Shown piece by piece: positions 50 to 12,488 of a DNA stretch of 12,488 nucleotides. Numbering within the stretch: the first letter of the stretch is position 1; each line of letters begins with the position of its first letter. The notes under the pieces were generated by a model. It searched no databases and was not told the origin of the DNA. It worked only from the letters and a program-made list of their open reading frames with translations. A program made the translations under genes and the position numbers. This stretch comes from Candidatus Micrarchaeota archaeon (GTDB lineage: Archaea; Micrarchaeota; Micrarchaeia; Anstonellales; Anstonellaceae): the NCBI GenBank assembly GCA_043810635.1, contig JBDRNY010000026.1, positions 1-12,488 of the forward strand, read 5' to 3'.

Positions 50-898
50 GTGCATACCATACGGGAGGGAAAAAAGGTTTCAAAAAAGGAGAAATACCTG
101 GGCGCCAGGCTCCCTAAAGATATTGAAGGGCTGAAATCAGAATTTCTTGCTCAAATATGCAAGGAAAAATGGCACCCGATTTTTGAGCGCATAAAATCAG
201 CTTATTCCGGGGAAAACAGGCAGATGCCAAAGGAAGTGCGCCGCAAAAATTTGGAAGCATTTTCCATCCGCTTCACTTATGACACCCAGCGCATTGAGGG
301 CTCCGCCCTCAGCTTGCGGGAAACTGCAGACTTGCTGCAAAAAGGAATCAGCCCGGGCAAAAAACCAATCAGGGATGCAAAAGAGGCGCAGGCACACCAG
401 AAACTTTTGTTTAAAATCCTAAAGCAAAAAAAAGATTTGGCGCCCCAAATTGTTCTTGATTGGCACAAAGAGCTGTTTTGGCAGACCCAGCCAGAGCTGG
501 CAGGAAAGCTTAGGGCATATAAGGTAATGATATCTGGCAGCCGCTTTTCTCCGCCTTCCCCGAACAGGGTTGGGCCGATGCTTATGGAATTTTTTTCATG
601 GTATGAAAAAAACAAGGAGAAAATCCATCCTGTTGAGCTGGCGGCACTGGCCCACCTGAAGTTTGTTACCATCCACCCGTTCGGAGACGGCAACGGCAGG
701 ATTTCACGCCTGCTTATGAACTTTGTGCTTTTTCGCAACGGCTTTCCCATGATAAATATCCACTATGAAAAGCGCAGGAGTTATTATACTGCACTGGAGC
801 ATGCACAAATCCGTGGTGAGGACAGCATTTTTGTGCACTGGCTTTTCAGAAGATATGCCAAAAAATTCAAGGAATATGCTGCAAAGGGGGAAGAATAG
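50..898 (+). CDS. Fic/DOC family protein (class II Fic, adenylyltransferase fold); 5' end may lie beyond the window
   Basis: 282-aa ORF carrying the canonical Fic active-site motif HPFGDGNGRISR (HxFx[DE]GNGRxxR). An upstream TQRIEG stretch matches the [ST]xxxE[GN] auto-inhibitory helix motif. The listed start is GTG at 50, the frame stays open back to position 2, and no convincing ATG/SD is seen, so the N-terminus is uncertain or truncated. Confidence 0.8.
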   Translation: MHTIREGKKVSKKEKYLGARLPKDIEGLKSEFLAQICKEKWHPIFERIKSAYSGENRQMPKEVRRKNLEAFSIRFTYDTQRIEGSALSLRETADLLQKGISPGKKPIRDAKEAQAHQKLLFKILKQKKDLAPQIVLDWHKELFWQTQPELAGKLRAYKVMISGSRFSPPSPNRVGPMLMEFFSWYEKNKEKIHPVELAALAHLKFVTIHPFGDGNGRISRLLMNFVLFRNGFPMINIHYEKRRSYYTALEHAQIRGEDSIFVHWLFRRYAKKFKEYAAKGEE

Positions 899-910
899 AC
901 AGAATAGGCG

Positions 911-964
911 TTTACCCCTACATTTTTAACAAAATAGTTAATATTATAAATTTGTAGGGGTAAA
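911..964. repeat. 12-bp perfect inverted repeat TTTACCCCTACA / TGTAGGGGTAAA with a 30-nt AT-rich spacer, between convergent genes. Candidate bidirectional terminator hairpin or palindromic protein-binding site.
   Basis: Read directly: 911-922 is the exact reverse complement of 953-964. It sits in the 112-bp gap between the Fic stop (898) and the minus-strand ORF ending at 1011. Confidence 0.4.
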
Positions 965-1010
965 TTGAGAATGATTTTCCCTTTTTTTATTTTATTAAAT
1001 ATTATATTTC

Positions 1011-3283: not shown

Positions 3284-4369
3284 ATGTTTGAGAATATAGT
3301 TGCGGAAGCAAAATCTGATTCTGGTGCAAGTATGCAGAAAAAAGACGAATTTTTGTCAAATGACAAAATAAGAATAGCTATTATAGGTGTTGGCGGGGGC
3401 GGATGCAACACCATAAACAGAATGATGAGAAAGGGAATTAAATCCGCAAGATTGATTGCAATTAATACTGATAATTTGCATTTGAAAAGCATTCAGGCGC
3501 AGGAAAAAATACTTATTGGAAAATCCATTACAAGAGGTTTGGGTGCAGGAGGATTTCCTGAAATTGCTGAAAAATGCGTGCAAGCTTCTAAAAAAGAATT
3601 GACTGAAAAAATTGGGGAAAATGAATTGGTATTTATTACTGCAGGATTGGGCGGAGGGACAGGCACAGGAGGTGCGCCCACAATTGCAGAAATTGCAAAA
3701 GAGCAGGGGGCAATTGTTGTATCAATTGTAACCACCCCGTTCAAATTGGAAAGGGCAAGATTGCAGAAAGCTGAATGGGGCTTGAGAAGGCTGGCTGCTG
3801 CGTCAGATACTGTAGTTGTAATTGACAATAACAGATTATTGCAATATGCTCCAAATGTTCCTATTAATGATGCATTTAACCTCGCTGATGCAATTACTGC
3901 AAAAGCTGTGCAGGGAATTACTGAAACAATTATGTTTCCGTCTTTGCTGAATGTGGATTATGCTGATGTGAAAGCTGTGATGGAAAACGGGGGCATTTCC
4001 CTTATTTCAATAGGGGAAGGGCATGGAAATGACAGAGTGGAGCAGGTGTCAAAAACAACTTTGGAACACCCATTGCTTGATGTTTCTTATGAAGGGGCAA
4101 AAGGAGCATTGCTCCATATCGACGGGGGAAGCTCGCTTACACTCGGGGAAGTTATTAGCATTGGAGAAAGGATTACTGACAAATTTGACTTGAATGCAAA
4201 CGTGAAAATTGGTGCAAGGCTTTCTGAAAGCAAAACTGACGGAATTTCCGCAACCGCAATAGTGACTGGGTTGAAATCTGAGCAGGTTGAAAGAATTATC
4301 GGCACCGAGGAAGATGAAGCAGGAAGGCCGAAGGAAGTAACCACAGTGGAAAACATCACCTATATCTAA
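3284..4369 (+). CDS. ftsZ: Cell division GTPase FtsZ
   Basis: IAIIGVGGGGCNTINRMM nucleotide-binding N-terminus, the tubulin/FtsZ signature GGGTGTG within ITAGLGGGTGTGGAPTIAEIAKE, an NTD motif (AINTDNLHL) and a typical FtsZ C-terminal domain. A GGGGGATGGG SD-like run precedes the ATG. Confidence 0.9.
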   Translation: MFENIVAEAKSDSGASMQKKDEFLSNDKIRIAIIGVGGGGCNTINRMMRKGIKSARLIAINTDNLHLKSIQAQEKILIGKSITRGLGAGGFPEIAEKCVQASKKELTEKIGENELVFITAGLGGGTGTGGAPTIAEIAKEQGAIVVSIVTTPFKLERARLQKAEWGLRRLAAASDTVVVIDNNRLLQYAPNVPINDAFNLADAITAKAVQGITETIMFPSLLNVDYADVKAVMENGGISLISIGEGHGNDRVEQVSKTTLEHPLLDVSYEGAKGALLHIDGGSSLTLGEVISIGERITDKFDLNANVKIGARLSESKTDGISATAIVTGLKSEQVERIIGTEEDEAGRPKEVTTVENITYI

Positions 4370-4867: not shown

Positions 4868-5515
4868 ATGAAATCCGCAGTATTATTTTCTGGAGGGAAA
4901 GATTCGGCTTATGCAACCCAGTGGGCGCTGGAGCAGGGGCATGAAGTAATTTGGGTTAATATGCAGCCGCAGGAAGATTCGATGATGTTTCATCACCCTA
5001 ATGTAAAATGGTGCAAATTGCAATCCCAGGCTGCGGAGATAGAATTGAAAACATTTGATACAAAGCATGAGAGGGAATTAATAGATTTGGAAAATGCATT
5101 AAAGAAATTGGATGTGGAAGGGGTTGTTACGGGCGCGGTTGCTTCGGTTTACCAAAAATCCAGGATTGATAAAATTGCAAATAAATTGAAATTGGAGGTG
5201 TTTTCCCCTTTGTGGGGGAAAGATGAAGAATTTTTGAAAAAAATGTTAAGTGAAATGGAAGTGTATATTGTTTCTATTTCTGCTGAAGGGCTGGGAGAAG
5301 AATGGCTGGGGAAAAAATTTGAGAAAGAGGATGTGGATAAATTATCTGCCCTGCAGCCGAAAATAAATGTTTATTTGGAAGGCGGGGAGGGGGAAACTTT
5401 TGTTGCAGATGCGCCTTTTTTCAAAAAAAGAATTGAAATATTAAAATGGGAAAAGAAATTTGACGGAATGAGGGGGAAGGCGGTTATTAAAGAGGCGAAG
5501 TTAGTGGAGAAATAA
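4868..5515 (+). CDS. dph6: Diphthine-ammonia ligase-like PP-loop ATP pyrophosphatase (MJ0570/Dph6 family)
   Basis: N-terminal PP-loop LFSGGKDS and the C-terminal LEGGEGETF (EGGE motif), with a size of about 215 aa typical for archaeal Dph6/MJ0570. The ATG at 4868 is only 2 nt after the tRNA-Ala discriminator; the track start at 4859 is GTG inside the tRNA. Confidence 0.75.
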   Translation: MKSAVLFSGGKDSAYATQWALEQGHEVIWVNMQPQEDSMMFHHPNVKWCKLQSQAAEIELKTFDTKHERELIDLENALKKLDVEGVVTGAVASVYQKSRIDKIANKLKLEVFSPLWGKDEEFLKKMLSEMEVYIVSISAEGLGEEWLGKKFEKEDVDKLSALQPKINVYLEGGEGETFVADAPFFKKRIEILKWEKKFDGMRGKAVIKEAKLVEK

Positions 5516-6190: not shown

Positions 6191-6472
6191 ATGCCTAAAG
6201 TGACTTTTAGCAAGGACAAGATTACTGTGGAAGTGCCTGCTGGCACAAAGCTTGTTGATGTTGCGGAAAAAAACGGTGCAAACATTAATTTTTCCTGCAA
6301 AGAGGGAGTGTGCTTAACCTGCCTTGTAAATATTATTTCAGGAAAGGAAAATTTGAATCCTATGACTGAAAATGAAAAAAGCACTTTGGAAGCGTTTGGG
6401 GCAAAGCCGGGGCAGAGATTGGCATGCCAGGTAATTGTAACCGGGGATTGTGTGATTGAATCAGTGGAGTGA
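6191..6472 (+). CDS. [2Fe-2S] ferredoxin (plant/adrenodoxin-type cysteine pattern)
   Basis: 93 aa with C-x4-C-x2-C ... C ligand spacing (CKEGVCLTC ... ACQV). A GGTGATAGG SD lies 3-4 nt upstream of the ATG. Confidence 0.8.
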   Translation: MPKVTFSKDKITVEVPAGTKLVDVAEKNGANINFSCKEGVCLTCLVNIISGKENLNPMTENEKSTLEAFGAKPGQRLACQVIVTGDCVIESVE

Positions 6473-7085: not shown

Positions 7086-7218
7086 GCCGGTGTCGCATAA
7101 CCTGGTAGTGCGCTGGTCTTGAAGAGCCCTTTTCCACCTTTGGTGCAAAAGCCCTCGGGGAAAAGCTCTGGAAAACCAGTTCCTTACGGAATTGTAGGTT
7201 CAAATCCTGCCGCCGGCG
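7086..7218 (+). tRNA. tRNA-Ser (anticodon UGA), class II with long variable arm, interrupted by a ~50-nt intron (about 7124..7173) at the canonical 37/38 position; no encoded CCA
   Basis: Hand fold. Acceptor GCCGGTG/CGCCGGC has one G:U. D-stem is GCAT/GTGC with a 9-nt GG-containing loop. Anticodon stem 5' CTGGT (7113-7117) pairs with ACCAG (7175-7179) only if 7124-7173 is removed, leaving loop CTTGAAA (anticodon TGA). Variable arm is TTCC-TTAC-GGAA (14 nt). T-arm is GTAGG-TTCAAAT-CCTGC. Discriminator G73 fits Ser identity. The intron termini form a helix AGAGC/GCTCT compatible with a BHB-like splice motif. Confidence 0.8.
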
Positions 7219-8520: not shown

Positions 8521-8668
8521 TAAATATTAGGCAACCAAAAAACTGCGAAAAATTTGCATAACAAAATTTCTTTTGCCTGGGAGGGCGAAAGAAAATTTTT
8601 GTTTATTAGGGAGGCTGATTGAATGGTGCCTTTTGGAAAAAGTATTTCTTCTTTTTTTATTTTATTTC

Positions 8669-8693
8669 TTATTTTTCTTCAATAAAATCCTCA
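8669..8693 (+). repeat. Direct repeat copy 1 (TATTTTTCTTCAATAAAATC[C/T]TCAA) flanking the COG1373 ATPase cassette
   Basis: A 20-nt exact match, extending to 25 nt with one mismatch, to 10479-10503. Both copies are preceded by T7-ATTTT runs. Confidence 0.5.
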
Positions 8694-8817
8694 AGCATCT
8701 GCCTTGCAACGGGGTCTGAAAATTGTTTTGGGGGGTGTTTCATAAAATAAGCTGAAGGCGCTTCAAGAGGGCCGGCAATCCCCCTGTCAAGGGCGATTTG
8801 AGCGCAATGCCCATTTC

Positions 8818-10083
8818 CTAATTCCCCTTCCCAAGAAGAAACTCATATACCGGCATATATTCAAGCTTTATCGGCTTTGAAACTTTTTTTCTGAAATTTT
8901 TGGTAATTACCATGGCTTTCTTGCATTTGTATTTTTTGCAGAAAAGCACAAGTGCGTTTTCCCGCTCTGGCTTTGCCCTGTATTTTATTTCCACAGGCAT
9001 AATTCCCTTTGCGCCGGCAAGGATCATGTCAATCTCGTTTTTGCGCTTGTCTCTCCAGAAATATTTTGCACCAGAGCGGAGTATGCAGACTGCCTCCACA
9101 AGCTTTGAAAAATATTCCTCCCCCCCATGGCCGGAAAGCGCGGGGCTTAAGAATGAGGGATAATACTTCTTGAGCCTTTTTTCCGAAGTTGCCCTGTTCC
9201 TTGAAAAGTTGTAAAGCTTTTTTACAAGGTGCGCGCGCTCAAGGTAGTCAAAATACTTGGATACAGTCTGCCTTGATATTCCAAGCTCGCGGGAAAATGA
9301 GTCAAAATCAACCACCATGCCGGGGTTGTCTGCCAATATGTTGAGCATGGAAATGAGGATTTGCGGATTTTCTATGGGGTATAATTTTTTCATGTCCTTG
9401 AAAACAATCTTCTCCACTACTGAATCCTTGATATAATCCCTCACAAGGGCGGCATCTTTTTTCCCTATAATCTCGGGGAAGCCCGCGCACATAACATAGC
9501 CTTCAAATTCCGCCCTCAACTCCGCATCATAAACAAGCGGCTTTTTTGCAAGCCCTTCTTTTCCCCTGAATTTAAGGTATTCTGCAAAAGACAATGCCTC
9601 AACCTCGAATTCGTAAATCCTTCCTGCAAGGCTTTCGCGCGAACCTTCAAGCAGGAAAAGGGATTCTGAGCCGCTGGCAAATATCCTGTATTTTCCGCTG
9701 TCATACAAAACTTTGACTTTTTCAGCCCAATTTCCAAGCTTCTGCACCTCGTCAAGCAGGAGGAATTTCGGCTCCCTGCCGTGCATTGCCATAAATTCGT
9801 CTATTATCTCAAGAAGCTCTCCCCCCGCAAAATCATCAAATGAAAAATACATAATGGAATCGGGGGGGTTTGTTTTCAGCAGGTCGGATATTATCTTGTT
9901 GAGCAACGTGCTTTTGCCAACCCTTCTCAGGCCGCACAATGCGATTATCTGCCTCTCACCCATCCTTTTGGATATCTTTTTATATATCTCCCGCTCCACA
10001 TAGGCAAATTCATGCTTCCCTTTCCAAAAGGGGTTGAATTCTACCAACATCCTTCTTATTTTTTCGTTAATTTTAATCACCAT
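8818..10083 (-). CDS. AAA+ superfamily ATPase of the COG1373 type (AAA_14 + DUF4143 architecture), function unknown
   Basis: Walker A GLRRVGKST and Walker B FLLLDEVQ in the N-terminal half. The C-terminal region (…YFWRDKRKNEIDMILA…VEIKY) is typical of the DUF4143 domain of this archaea-abundant, usually multi-copy family. Clean ATG at 10083. Confidence 0.85.
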   Translation of the reverse strand: MVIKINEKIRRMLVEFNPFWKGKHEFAYVEREIYKKISKRMGERQIIALCGLRRVGKSTLLNKIISDLLKTNPPDSIMYFSFDDFAGGELLEIIDEFMAMHGREPKFLLLDEVQKLGNWAEKVKVLYDSGKYRIFASGSESLFLLEGSRESLAGRIYEFEVEALSFAEYLKFRGKEGLAKKPLVYDAELRAEFEGYVMCAGFPEIIGKKDAALVRDYIKDSVVEKIVFKDMKKLYPIENPQILISMLNILADNPGMVVDFDSFSRELGISRQTVSKYFDYLERAHLVKKLYNFSRNRATSEKRLKKYYPSFLSPALSGHGGEEYFSKLVEAVCILRSGAKYFWRDKRKNEIDMILAGAKGIMPVEIKYRAKPERENALVLFCKKYKCKKAMVITKNFRKKVSKPIKLEYMPVYEFLLGKGN

Positions 10084-10094
10084 AAAGTAAACTA

Positions 10095-10114
10095 TGTGTT
10101 AATTATACTTAACA
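10095..10114. promoter_or_regulatory. Palindrome GTGTTAA-ttatac-TTAACAC overlapping a TATA-like element 12-31 bp upstream of the ATPase start codon
   Basis: Perfect 7-bp inverted repeat read directly. On the minus strand it reads GTATAATTAAC, a plausible TATA box for a short-leader transcript of the ATPase gene. Confidence 0.35.
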
Positions 10115-10181
10115 CAAAGTTAAAAAGGCTTTCGGATGCTGGCTGAAGGGCCGATTATTGAGCCTCCTATTCCTGCCTAAC

Positions 10182-10239
10182 ATTTTGTAACTATTCTTTT
10201 ACAAAATACCTGCTTTTTGTAATATCAACTTTACAAAAT
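10182..10239. promoter_or_regulatory. Tandem pair of 9-N8-9 palindromes: ATTTTGTAA-N8-TTACAAAAT (10182-10207) and TTTTTGTAA-N8-TTACAAAAT (10214-10239), about 32 bp centre-to-centre. Candidate double operator.
   Basis: Half-sites are exact reverse complements (second site has one variant base in the left half). The spacing of about three helical turns is typical of cooperative dimeric transcription-factor sites. Located 100-155 bp upstream of the ATPase gene and just upstream of the structured region 10290-10445. Confidence 0.45.
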
Positions 10240-10289
10240 GCAAATATATGCCGCTTTATTTGTGCGGATTTTTGTACTGAGAATTTGCA

Positions 10290-10445
10290 GCATGTTATAG
10301 CAAACCACGAAAGTTTTACGAATTTCCTGCTTTGCTTCTGCCTCGTGGTTTGCTAGGTTGCAGGCCGCATTACGGCAAACCAGAAGAGGTTTGCCGGGCT
10401 GCAGGACGCTTAAGCGGACTGCAGGACTTTGGCGGACTGCAATAA
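10290..10445 (+). other. GC-rich, highly structured non-coding segment (candidate sRNA gene) with nested GCAAACC-based hairpins and tandem GCGGACTGCAGGAC-like repeats
   Basis: Hairpin A is GCAAACCACGA (10303-10313) / TCGTGGTTTGC (10343-10353). Hairpin B is GGCAAACC-agaaga-GGTTTGCC (10374-10395). Three degenerate tandem units contain CTGCAG (10396-10442). An AAATATAT TATA-like element precedes at about 10242-10249 and long oligo-T tracts follow (10455-10490). Only short, mutually overlapping ORFs cross it. Confidence 0.3.
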
Positions 10446-10478
10446 TTTGCATTTATTTTTTTCTAATTTTTTTATTTT

Positions 10479-10503
10479 TATTTTTCTTCAATAAAATCTT
10501 CAA
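10479..10503 (+). repeat. Direct repeat copy 2 (TATTTTTCTTCAATAAAATCTTCAA), partner of 8669-8693
   Basis: See copy 1. The two copies bracket about 1.8 kb containing the ATPase gene, its palindromic promoter region, the double operator and the structured non-coding region. Confidence 0.5.
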
Positions 10504-10715
10504 CCCGACATATGCAGAAGACAATGATTATAGTACATACGCATCTCGCCAGAGCGGATTGCCTTCGGTCTATTATAGTTATTCCACTTCAATACCTTCA
10601 GGCATGACTGCTGCAACATGGCATGTAAAACACGGAGATATTGCCGCATATGACATAACTCTGGTATCGTCCTGCAGAAATCAAAATCCAATACAACTTA
10701 GAATTAGGAAACTAT

Positions 10716-10949
10716 TTATTGCAGCTTTTTCAATATTGCACCTAAGAGGATAACAAGCCCAATTATTATCAGTATTGAAGGGCATATGGGAACATTAAAG
10801 CTCCACCATGCAAGCTCTTTTCCGAACCAATATAATCCAATAAGGGATATCGCAACTCCTACGAGAATGCTTCCCCAGCTTATACGAGTGCTATGATGCC
10901 ATTTCCATCCCCTTTCCCATTCTCTAAAATCCATCTGTTTTTTTACCAT
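10716..10949 (-). CDS. Small membrane protein (77 aa, two predicted TM helices), co-operonic with gvp genes
   Basis: ATG at 10949 is preceded on the minus strand by GTGGTGTT (GGTG SD) with correct spacing. It has two hydrophobic stretches and an 8-nt gap to the upstream gene. Confidence 0.5.
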   Translation of the reverse strand: MVKKQMDFREWERGWKWHHSTRISWGSILVGVAISLIGLYWFGKELAWWSFNVPICPSILIIIGLVILLGAILKKLQ

Positions 10950-10957
10950 AACACCAC

Positions 10958-11170
10958 CTACTGTTGCTGTCGCATTCTAAAATATTTATAACCAAACCAG
11001 AGGGCGATTATCCCCGTTACTGTCCAAAATATGCTAAAGATAAGAAGAACAACCTGCGGGATGCTGCTCCCGCCAGGAACCGCTAAAAGCAGCGCACCAG
11101 TTGCAATCGCTGCCAACCCAAAGAAAAGCGCAATCTCTGGAGATTGCTGTGTTATCGGCAAATTTTCCAT
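10958..11170 (-). CDS. Small membrane protein (70 aa, two predicted TM helices), co-operonic with gvp genes
   Basis: ATG at 11170 is 1 nt after the stop of the GvpA/J-family gene. Hydrophobic segments are ALFFGLAAIATGALLLAV and VVLLIFSIFWTVTGIIALWFGY. Confidence 0.55.
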   Translation of the reverse strand: MENLPITQQSPEIALFFGLAAIATGALLLAVPGGSSIPQVVLLIFSIFWTVTGIIALWFGYKYFRMRQQQ

Positions 11171-11171
11171 A

Positions 11172-11426
11172 CTACACCACCACCTCGACCTTTTTATCCT
11201 TTTTTACCTCTTCATCCGCCATCTCCATCCGTATTTTTTCATCCAAATCTTCCATCATGCCATAGCTTATCATAGTGTCCATATTGGCAAGAGCAGCCCT
11301 TAAATTGATTCCTAATAGTGGAACACCGGCAAGGGTTACAACAACATCTGCTTGAATGACAATCCCTTTGTCGAGGACCCTGCCCAGCAAGTCCACAAGC
11401 GCAGAATTTTCATCTTTCAATTCCAT
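11172..11426 (-). CDS. Gas vesicle structural protein of the GvpA/GvpJ/GvpM family (acidic C-terminal tail, more GvpJ-like)
   Basis: Core LVDLLGRVLDKGIVIQADVVVTLAGVPLLGINLRAALANMDTMISYG aligns with the GvpA consensus (LAEVLDRVLDKGVVVDxWxRxSLVGIEILTVEARVVxASVDTxLxYAE). The ATG at 11426 is preferred because the longer track start at 11477 is TTG. Confidence 0.8.
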   Translation of the reverse strand: MELKDENSALVDLLGRVLDKGIVIQADVVVTLAGVPLLGINLRAALANMDTMISYGMMEDLDEKIRMEMADEEVKKDKKVEVVV

Positions 11427-11748
11427 CCAGATCCAACTCGAAAAATGTTTGATAAATTTCACTAAGCCAATTGTCAACTTTTCTTATAGCAATATAATTA
11501 ACCCGCCCTCCCGAAACGATTTGGAGCTGCTTAACCATTTTTGAGAGTATGCATTTTCTTTTTACGATATCAACCTTTTCCAAGTCTTCCAAATATCTTT
11601 GAAAGGTAACTTTTTCACCTTGAGCAAAGATAAGCCTTCTGGTTGTCAAATGAAGGTAGCCTGGCTTCCAGGAAACCATCTGCTGAAATAACCCCTGGTC
11701 CCGGAGTACTAGCTCCTCGTTTTCTAAAGGCCTTAGTTTTTGAAACAT
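11410..11748 (-). CDS. Hypothetical protein (112 aa) with a bacterial-PH/GRAM-like signature (GYLHLTTRRLIF), embedded in the gvp operon
   Basis: ATG at 11748 is 9 nt after the GvpF/L stop, and the 3' end overlaps the GvpA/J-family start by 17 nt. The G-x-L-x-LT-x-R-x-IF pattern resembles bPH_2/DUF304-type PH domains. This assignment is tentative. Confidence 0.5.
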   Translation of the reverse strand: MFQKLRPLENEELVLRDQGLFQQMVSWKPGYLHLTTRRLIFAQGEKVTFQRYLEDLEKVDIVKRKCILSKMVKQLQIVSGGRVNYIAIRKVDNWLSEIYQTFFELDLDGIER

Positions 11749-11757
11749 GTTTATGCC

Positions 11758-12488
11758 TCATAAAAATGAATACGGAGCCCAAGGCCCGGTTATGCGGCCG
11801 GAAAGATTGTTAAAATCATCCATTTTTTCCAATTCTTCCTTAAATTGTGCGGCATTTTCTTTTTGTATAAGGCAAGAAACATTTAGCAGCATAGTTTTTC
11901 CATCTGCTTTCCTTGTTTTTCCGGAGCGCATATCACTGCAACAATTTTTTATTATGGATTGCACTTCTTTTGCGAGCTCGCTGGTTTTTTCCCCAAGTTC
12001 CTTTTTAACCACGCTTTCAAATGTCTGCTTGCACAGGTATGCATGGCCTGGCGAATCTGCTGCTTCCATTTTCTTTTTCAATTCGGCCACTCTCTCATTT
12101 TTATTAAGAATGTCCTGAAGAAGCCTTTCCCTGTCCATAAATACTTGAACACCATATTCCTGCTTGCCTCTAAGCTCGTTTAGTTTTCTTTCTAAATCAG
12201 GATGCTGCTCTTCAAGCCATTTTTGCACAGCCTCGTTTGACCCGCTATCTTTCTCTTTTATTATGGTGTCAAACCTCAAAGGAACAGCCGCGTTGAATTT
12301 ATTAAAGGCGAGATCAATGACGCTATTGTGGGCCTGTGCATAATTAATAATAACATTTTCATCCTTTGAATCATAGGCTTTAGGAAGGCAATTATGCACT
12401 ACTGCGCTTATGCCCAAATGTGGAATTGTATATACATTGTTTTCTTCTATGCCAATTTTGCCAAGGCTGATAAAATCGCCAGTATCAA
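11758..12488 (-). CDS. Gas vesicle protein GvpF/GvpL family (5' end beyond window)
   Basis: The C-terminus ...SGRITGPWAPYSFL matches the conserved GvpF/L terminal motif (GPWPPYSF). The coiled, charged central region is typical. The frame stays open past the TTG at 12417 to the window edge (upstream residues ...DFISLGKIGIEENNVYTIPHLG resemble the GvpF N-terminal beta-strand region). Confidence 0.85.
   Translation of the reverse strand, partial: DTGDFISLGKIGIEENNVYTIPHLGISAVVHNCLPKAYDSKDENVIINYAQAHNSVIDLAFNKFNAAVPLRFDTIIKEKDSGSNEAVQKWLEEQHPDLERKLNELRGKQEYGVQVFMDRERLLQDILNKNERVAELKKKMEAADSPGHAYLCKQTFESVVKKELGEKTSELAKEVQSIIKNCCSDMRSGKTRKADGKTMLLNVSCLIQKENAAQFKEELEKMDDFNNLSGRITGPWAPYSFL

Follow-up and report, generated by a model that had tools for sequence, protein, structure and literature searches.

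What is the pair of palindromes that lies between an ATPase gene and a structured non-coding region of an archaeal contig, which protein might recognize it, and which of its neighbours might it control? The stretch studied here is the whole 12,488-bp contig (hereafter, the window) of a Candidatus Micrarchaeota metagenome-assembled genome (MAG), and the element occupies positions 10182-10239. A sequence-only reading had taken it for a double operator, formed by two adjacent 9-N8-9 palindromes and bound by a cooperative dimeric protein. Our analyses confirm that the double palindrome is a real, non-random array. Moreover, they lead us to lean, without strong conviction, towards the view that it is the operator array of a subfamily of AAA_14 ATPases, that the copy in the window is an orphan, and that it would be bound by such an ATPase and control the structured non-coding region.

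The element reads ATTTTGTAA-CTATTCTT-TTACAAAAT-ACCTGC-TTTTTGTAA-TATCAACT-TTACAAAAT. Half-site cores (TTTTGTAA or TTACAAAA) occur in it four times, starting at 10183, 10199, 10215 and 10231, i.e., with a regular 16-bp pitch and in alternating orientation. The dyad centres (10194.5 and 10226.5) are exactly 32 bp apart, approximately three helical turns, in agreement with the earlier estimate of about 32 bp. The description as two 9-N8-9 palindromes holds for the first dyad, while the second is 8-N8-8: the outermost base of its left arm is T, not A, and its core is exact. Since the cores alternate at a 16-bp pitch, the inner half-site pair (10199-10222) is palindromic as well, with N8 between the 8-mer cores, or 9-N6-9 if 9-mers are considered. 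Measured from start to start, the half-sites follow the spacing F-17-R-15-F-17-R, which is also seen in L013, L098, L198, L202, L202d and others among the loci fetched for comparison (L numbers). In the window array, 35 of the 36 half-site positions agree with the ATTTTGTAA/TTACAAAAT consensus.

Could such an arrangement be a coincidence? The intergenic region is AT-rich (36% GC), and in metagenomic DNA of AT-rich composition single 9-N8-9 dyads are frequent among the matches listed. However, 200 dinucleotide-preserving shuffles of the window gave an expectation of 0.01 for TTTTGTAA-N8-TTACAAAA with up to two mismatches, as against two matches in the window, and two matches were reached in 0/200 shuffles. 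Neither 8-mer has a further copy across the 12.5 kb. Moreover, the same four-site geometry is found at a fixed promoter position in unrelated Micrarchaeota contigs. The shuffles, together with the 70-locus scan and the orthologue promoters presented below, refute chance, whose probability we regard as negligible.

We scanned one genome per species (185,579 species, 596 Gb) for three consecutive half-sites, TTTGTAA-N8-TTACAAA-N10-TTTGTAA, and obtained 70 loci against approximately four expected (an estimate from base composition). These comprised ~26 loci from Vibrio/Photobacterium, ~30 from Bacteroidota and related groups, and three from other Micrarchaeota MAGs (L013, L020, L041). The Micrarchaeota arrays have the extended consensus RYATTTTGTAA-N8-TTACAAAATRC and a 6-nt spacer between dyads, and they keep the 17/15/17-nt spacing of half-site starts. 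In L020, 11 nt separate the end of the array from a TATA box, beyond which an AAA_14 ATPase gene starts; its product contains an internal winged helix-turn-helix (wHTH). Six orthologues of this ATPase (46-79% identity) were chosen by protein similarity alone and fetched; in 6/6, only a few nucleotides separate an array of the same half-sites from a TATA box that is itself located ~25-30 nt 5' of ATGGA. Counting L020 and L098, the array stops short of the TATA box by 3-11 nt in 8/8 orthologues, and the tandem paralogue in L204 likewise carries an array, which brings the number of ATPase promoters with this element to nine. The subfamily (hereafter, the array-type ATPase) is defined from L020, L098, L196, L198, L200, L202, L204 and L206. 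As the neighbourhoods differ among these loci, the array travels with the ATPase gene. The window array has the matching half-sites, the 17/15/17 spacing and a TATA-like box within 3-11 nt, and it lacks the ATPase open reading frame (ORF). Two layouts suggest how orphan copies might arise, namely by duplication and deletion: in L202, near-identical arrays stand on both sides of the ATPase gene (9907-9965 and 11207-11265) with nothing obvious behind the downstream copy, hence orphan copies do arise, and L204 shows an array-ATPase-array-ATPase tandem. When mismatches were allowed, 207 kb of Micrarchaeota loci yielded 65 matches against ~22 in Markov shuffles, a surplus due to the ATPase-promoter arrays. 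The same 207 kb revealed no convincing wider regulon; weak candidates lie 5' of an Lrp-like gene (L204) and of an MNT gene (L198).

Palindromes may also act as nucleic-acid hairpins, i.e., at the RNA level as stem-loops that serve termination or processing, or at the DNA level as cruciforms or sites of recombination. Folded as RNA, the 70-nt stretch gives two hairpins of 8-9 bp (-15.4 kcal/mol, z -6.1), and the L013 and L041 arrays lie just past gene 3' ends. However, compensated arm deviations amounted to 0/56 (28 dyads in 13 arrays), which argues for selection on sequence rather than on pairing, and thus for half-sites that are protein sites. Since the array precedes the TATA box at the nine ATPase promoters, it is not transcribed with the ATPase gene there. 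In addition, the arms keep their sequence whereas the spacers are free to vary, the stems consist almost entirely of A/T and enclose 8-nt loops, and no integrase, transposase or repeat partner was found in the window. We therefore consider a hairpin function very improbable. The earlier proposal of a double operator for a cooperative dimeric protein is borne out by the half-sites and spacing conserved in 13 Micrarchaeota arrays, by their position at ATPase promoters and by the lack of compensatory changes in the arms.

Three further candidates were rejected. For an integron attC site (GCCTAAC at 10174-10180 fits RYYYAAC), both a partner core site and an integrase are missing, and the arm sequence is conserved here, unlike in attC. 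A dispersed repeat, a miniature inverted-repeat transposable element (MITE) or a CRISPR was dismissed, given that the 8-mers occur at this site only and that the two units belong to no larger tandem or dispersed family. Concerning an archaeal replication origin (origin recognition box, ORB, or mini-ORB), Pfam searches of the ten large window ORFs detected no Orc1/Cdc6 domain, and the array stands at a gene promoter in nine other loci.

The link to ATPases of this family is not confined to Micrarchaeota. By tBLASTn and hidden Markov model (HMM) searches of all fetched loci, more than 20 Bacteroidota loci, L020 and the metagenome loci L098, L100, L146, L168, L174 and L185 were found to have an AAA_14/DUF4143 gene whose start lies 11-80 bp 3' of the closest dyad centre. 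The Bacteroidota arrays, ATATTTGTAAA-N6-TTTACAAATAT, are closely similar, keep the 32-bp period and abut or overlap the start codon of the AAA_14+DUF4143 gene (L010, L014, L018, L023, L026, L031, L040, L042, L043, L046, L047, L050, L053, L055, L063, L064, L068, L069, L071, L073). Inside their repeat, TAnnTTTG resembles the -7 promoter motif of Bacteroidota. When the ORFs of 30 array-adjacent loci were clustered, the ATPase was the only family present in 30/30; the next family occurred in six closely related loci. In four orthologous loci of Prolixibacteraceae/Draconibacterium (L009, L016, L037, L072), the array is instead located upstream of a URO-D-like gene. A metagenome scan with the single 9-N8-9 dyad gave listed matches that are mostly AT-rich unrelated DNA and do not amount to a regulon census; the useful ones among those listed were L098 and the AAA_14/DUF4143 loci L100, L146, L168, L174 and L185. 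A scan of viral contigs gave a single match, and hence no sign of viral origin.

Other AAA_14/DUF4143 paralogues have different palindromes or 32-33-bp direct repeats upstream (L017 ~2090-2218, L073 ~5000-5090, L098 ~5400-5486, L055 ~830-900, L061 ~3360-3420). In L017, the direct repeat GGTAAAAATATCCGATAATTTTCCC occurs three times upstream of the ATPase paralogue; short palindromes at such positions include GAGTAAATTTACTC and TTTGCAAT-CCA-ATTGCAAA. This suggests that each ATPase paralogue has its own array, as expected if each recognizes its own promoter.

Which protein, then, could bind the array? The sequence-only reading had stated that no regulator gene is visible nearby. We disagree on this point: COG1373/AAA_14-DUF4143 ATPases carry a wHTH and are the only genes consistently linked to the array in two phyla, hence a candidate factor exists. 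The array-type ATPase (~396 aa) consists of an AAA+ (ORC/STAND-like) base, a helical lid, the wHTH and a C-terminal alpha/beta domain. In its AlphaFold model (pLDDT 91), a canonical wHTH spans residues 236-305, with helices 236-251, 259-266 and 270-282 and wing strands 286-289 and 302-305; the invariant lysine K270 opens the third helix, and K299 and K302, likewise invariant, belong to the wing. Among solved structures, the closest folds are those of Apaf-1, ORC subunits, MalT, DnaA and Cdc6/Orc1 on origin DNA. Some members of this architecture assemble in an ATP-dependent manner on repeated DNA boxes, and the winged helix of others never touches DNA. As judged from the model, the winged helix of the array-type ATPase may bind DNA. 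Since ATPase and array co-occur across phyla, the ATPase is the best candidate, and the array is most likely bound in trans by this winged helix, as we infer from the linkage. The protein shares its ATPase base, lid and winged helix with Orc1/Cdc6 at ORB sites, DnaA at DnaA boxes and MalT at MalT boxes, and several of these relatives oligomerize ATP-dependently on arrays of short repeats. Unlike the case of Orc1/Cdc6, there is no orc1/cdc6 gene among the scanned window ORFs and no ORB sequence here, and the ATPase possesses an additional C-terminal nuclease-like domain.

As previously noted, the array is placed between the start of the adjacent ATPase gene (ATG 10083, minus strand) and the structured region (about 10290-10450); the 630-bp gap between the ATPase and the gas-vesicle genes holds the ATPase promoter, the array, the structured stretch and T-runs (Table 1).

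Table 1. Positions of the array, promoter-like elements and adjoining features in the window.
Feature	Position	Strand	Basis or remark
Dyad 1, ATTTTGTAA-CTATTCTT-TTACAAAAT	10182-10207	no strand	Exact 9-N8-9 palindrome; fits the consensus of 13 Micrarchaeota arrays
Dyad 2, TTTTTGTAA-TATCAACT-TTACAAAAT	10214-10239	no strand	Exact 8-bp core (TTTTGTAA/TTACAAAA), outer base mismatched
TATA-like box AAATATAT	10242-10249	+	Begins 3 nt past the last half-site; context TTACAAAATGC-AAATATAT-GCC; read from sequence
Second TATA-like box CTTTATTTG	10254-10262	+	Read from sequence
Structured non-coding region	10290-10450	+	Folding energy; homology to the L001 core
T-runs TTTATTTTTTTCTAATTTTTTTATTTTTATTTTT	10452-10489	+	Likely archaeal oligo-T termination signal; read from sequence
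AAA_14 + DUF4143 ATPase (COG1373, PADLOC PDC-S01), 421 aa, internal wHTH	8818-10083	-	Pfam; PADLOC; tblastn against L020
Palindrome TGTGTTAA-N6-TTAACACA	10095-10116	-	Between the TATA-like box and ATG 10083; kept in L001, L004, L005
TATA-like box CCTTTTTAA	10120-10128	-	~50 nt from the array; aligns with CTTTATTAA/GCTTTATAAA in L001, L004, L005

The adjacent ATPase appears a less likely target. It is a paralogue of the array-type ATPase (~29% identity across ~300 aligned residues, tblastn against L020), and both have the AAA_14 + DUF4143 architecture and match PADLOC PDC-S01 (4e-59 for the window ATPase, 5e-22 for that of L020). Its closest homologues (L001-L005, 61-64% identity) stand in unrelated neighbourhoods, and no TTTTGTAA dyads were found in their upstream regions. 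The window, L001, L004 and L005 instead share a TATA box followed, just 5' of the ATG, by the palindrome (T)GTGTTAA-N6-TTAACAC(A), and L002 and L003 have a different palindrome at the same promoter position. The array therefore lies outside the conserved promoter of this gene, and we ruled it out as this ATPase's own conserved operator. The palindrome at 10095-10116 is probably an operator specific to the window-type paralogue, with a half-site related to that of the array. Hence, the suggestion that other COG1373 paralogues might carry the same sites proved correct for a different subfamily and not for the closest relatives of the window ATPase.

On the other side, the array is followed by the AAATATAT box, which was recognized by eye and by analogy. 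The junction of array and box resembles those in L206 (TTACAAAATGCAAAAATTTATAAAT), L204 (TAACAAAATACAAATATTTTTAAAT) and L196 (TTACAAAATGCATATATATTTATATAC), all 5' of ATPase genes, and we predict from its sequence that 10242-10249 could be a promoter core facing the plus strand. No TATA-like box was seen in the left (minus-strand) flank, GTTAGGCAGGAATAGG..., where the nearest one, that of the window ATPase, is ~50 nt off. Since the TATA-like box is present on the plus side only, in the geometry of the ATPase promoters, the structured non-coding region is the likelier target. Thus, the earlier view that the array could regulate either neighbour or both is narrowed: the structured region is favoured by this box, and the adjacent ATPase, whose homologues in L001-L005 lack the array, is disfavoured.

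The structured region has a minimum free energy (MFE) of -79.8 kcal/mol (z -5.75) on the plus strand and of -67.3 on the minus strand. In the intergenic region, no Rfam family was detected at gathering or permissive thresholds, and a scan for sigma70 promoters and intrinsic terminators is uninformative for an archaeon. A core of ~80 nt, consisting of two hairpins (CGGCAAACC...GGTTTGCCG and CTGCAG-GA-CGC...GCG-GA-CTGCAG), recurs in L001 (~800-985, minus strand) with two compensatory pairs, and in both loci it is divergent from a window-type ATPase gene. We regard 10290-10450 as a candidate new small RNA. Oligo-T tracts end archaeal transcription, and the T-runs at 10452-10489 may serve as terminator of the plus-strand transcript.

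No ATPase ORF follows the plus-side box, as the ATG at 10291 meets a stop after two codons; tblastn of 10084-10720 did not find an ATPase remnant, and a comparison of 10240-10715 with the other array loci revealed no homology except for the RNA-like core of L001. Given that no array-type ATPase ORF begins ~25-30 nt past the TATA-like box, the element is an orphan copy. Possibly, it is merely a non-functional relic, the promoter of an array-type ATPase gene that was deleted or replaced. The presence of array and TATA-like box with neither ORF nor remnant 3' of them is what such a loss would leave behind, and the leftover downstream array of L202 and the tandems of L204 are possible sources. However, with 35/36 half-site positions fitting the consensus and an exact spacing, the window array is better kept than several arrays at intact genes, so a relic would have to be very recent; moreover, the binding protein, if present, would still bind and affect both flanking promoters. 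Hence, we consider a relic quite unlikely, although it is the main alternative to the simplest reading, in which the orphan array and its TATA-like box now drive or control a plus-strand non-coding transcript.

Our preferred explanation, the operator array of an AAA_14 ATPase subfamily, can be outlined as follows. Four alternating half-sites (consensus ATTTTGTAA) form two dyads three helical turns apart, so that two dimers or one higher oligomer could bind cooperatively on one face of the DNA. The array is the signature upstream promoter element of one Micrarchaeota AAA_14 ATPase subfamily related to PDC-S01, and the winged helix of the ATPase would bind it, resulting in autoregulation at its own gene and in action in trans elsewhere. 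In the window, the orphan copy has the plus-facing TATA-like box but no ATPase ORF, and this module would subject transcription of the structured region (start ~10272-10290, end ~10452-10489) to the regulator of the array-type ATPase. The array itself, its conservation, its geometry, its place at promoters and its link to the ATPase family are supported directly by the comparisons; which protein binds, in which sense it regulates and whether the plus-strand promoter is active are what we infer here, and the array suggests that the structured non-coding RNA is co-regulated with the array-type ATPase system.

Several points weigh against this explanation. In STAND proteins such as Apaf-1, which are among the top structural matches, the winged helix has a structural role and no part in DNA binding. 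A comparison of wHTH recognition-helix sequences with operator type across subfamilies showed no clean correlation, and the ATPase would be the binder by virtue of co-occurrence with the array. The search for an array-type ATPase in this MAG covered the 12,488-bp contig. The sole homologue of the structured region, in L001, has no array upstream, hence the array is no ancestral part of the promoter of the structured RNA. Of the five Micrarchaeota arrays found by pattern, three (the window, L013, L041) are not beside an array-type ATPase, and L202 has an extra orphan; these orphans would be explained equally well by a distinct transcription factor whose regulon is wider.

Such a factor could be of the Lrp/AsnC type, regulating the ATPase subfamily, toxin-antitoxin-like genes and the non-coding region in the window. 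Lrp/AsnC proteins typically bind phased arrays of AT-rich semi-palindromes cooperatively. An Lrp/AsnC gene lies directly beside the array in L013, directly upstream of the array and ATPase in L196/L197, and within a few kb in L020 and L204, which also counts against the ATPase as binder and keeps an Lrp/AsnC factor a live rival. Moreover, orphan arrays occur 5' of other genes: in L013 (Micrarchaeota, 6249-6307) the array comes directly after the Lrp/AsnC gene and 5' of a DUF6290 ribbon-helix-helix gene, and in L139 (1088-1140) it precedes a nucleotidyltransferase-HEPN toxin-antitoxin (MNT-HEPN) pair. The archaeal regulator Ss-LrpB from Sulfolobus solfataricus provides a precedent for cooperative binding to regularly spaced arrays: its own control region contains three 15-bp palindromes at regular intervals, which it binds cooperatively and in an autoregulatory manner (PMC1802622). 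It is the closest archaeal analogue of the element described here, with AT-rich regular palindromes, one dimer per box and a half-site, TTGCA/TGCAA, that resembles TTGTA/TACAA. However, its 15-bp box has two 5-bp arms and a 5-bp A/T centre, while the arms here are 10 bp apart and the spacers contain G and C; the dyads here recur every 32 bp and the half-sites alternate at 16-bp intervals, and the conserved partner gene encodes an ATPase rather than an Lrp protein. Furthermore, no Lrp-type gene is present within 10 kb in L198, L200, L202 and L206, nor in the window; L139 is a bacterial contig, as shown by a T9SS sorting domain; and the ATPase link recurs in Bacteroidota, which have an unrelated regulator repertoire and in which the ATPase is the sole common gene. 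We thus regard a separate factor as unlikely, though by no means negligible, and retain the ATPase as the preferred binder.

The array also resembles the bacterial TyrR box. TyrR is not known to occur in archaea. The consensus of this box is TGTAAA-N6-TTTACA with an essential G-N14-C (PMC4374768). Each dyad agrees with it at 11 of 12 positions (TGTAAC-N6-TTTACA and TGTAAT-N6-TTTACA), and G10187/C10202 and G10219/C10234 provide the G-N14-C. TyrR is likewise an AAA+-type ATPase, with a C-terminal HTH, and acts on adjacent boxes, strong and weak ones side by side, through dimer-dimer or hexamer contacts, as in the mechanism proposed here. However, TyrR serves gamma-proteobacterial control of aromatic amino acids and has ACT/PAS and sigma54-type AAA+ domains, while the array studied here belongs to a DPANN archaeon and is linked to an AAA_14/ORC-STAND-like ATPase that carries a PD-(D/E)XK-type domain. 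No TyrR-type domain was found when the ten large window ORFs were compared with Pfam. Host and protein hence exclude membership among TyrR boxes, and the resemblance is formal, without homology. TyrR-box-like geometry is also seen in the ~26 Vibrio/Photobacterium loci, which read TTTTGTAAG-N6-CTTACAAA followed by TTTGTAACCTTCA; in the two loci checked (L012, L035), this motif adjoins a phosphotransferase system (PTS) EIICB gene, and on its other side in L035 there is an OmpR-type response-regulator gene.

As cooperative palindromic operator arrays are familiar, the double palindrome introduces no new principle. However, as far as the searchable literature shows, the operator family and its link to an ATPase family appear to be undescribed. 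To our knowledge, almost no regulatory sites have been reported in DPANN archaea, which gain here a well-defined operator and promoter architecture. PDC-S01 is a candidate defence family combining an ATPase with PD-(D/E)XK, very common, enriched in archaea, often moved between domains and functionally unvalidated (PMC12988326), and DUF4143 is classed as PD-(D/E)XK (PMC3424549). The family is reported to be the fourth commonest candidate defence gene in prokaryotes, and the searchable literature on it makes no mention of operator arrays, autoregulation or DNA sequence specificity. The array marks promoters of this widespread uncharacterized ATPase family (AAA_14/DUF4143, PDC-S01), which is especially abundant in archaea, and the defined 58-bp DNA ligand offers a cheap experimental handle on a family of no known function. 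We tentatively speculate, while considering it doubtful in this general form, that PDC-S01-type ATPases might be sequence-specific DNA binders, i.e., ORC/STAND-like ATP switches whose winged helix nucleates on 32-bp-phased arrays of TTGTAA palindromes, with a separate array at the promoter of each paralogue, from Bacteroidota to DPANN archaea; orphan arrays would then connect further loci, such as the structured non-coding RNA of the window, to this ATP-dependent switch.

Some further features of the window were observed. T-rich tracts at 8645-8694, beyond the 3' end of the ATPase gene, and at 10457-10503, after the structured region, are 86% identical over 50 nt; this may reflect low-complexity similarity or a common terminator-like element. 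A gas-vesicle cluster occupies 10716-12417 on the minus strand and ends at 10716; it includes GvpF/L (Pfam 1e-49) and a GvpA/J/M-like ORF (11172-11477), and two small membrane-protein ORFs are located downstream of the gas-vesicle genes. At 7086-7218 on the plus strand, Rfam identified a tRNA of 133 nt (41 bits) that was missed by ARAGORN and is probably an intron-containing archaeal tRNA, in keeping with the archaeal origin of the contig.

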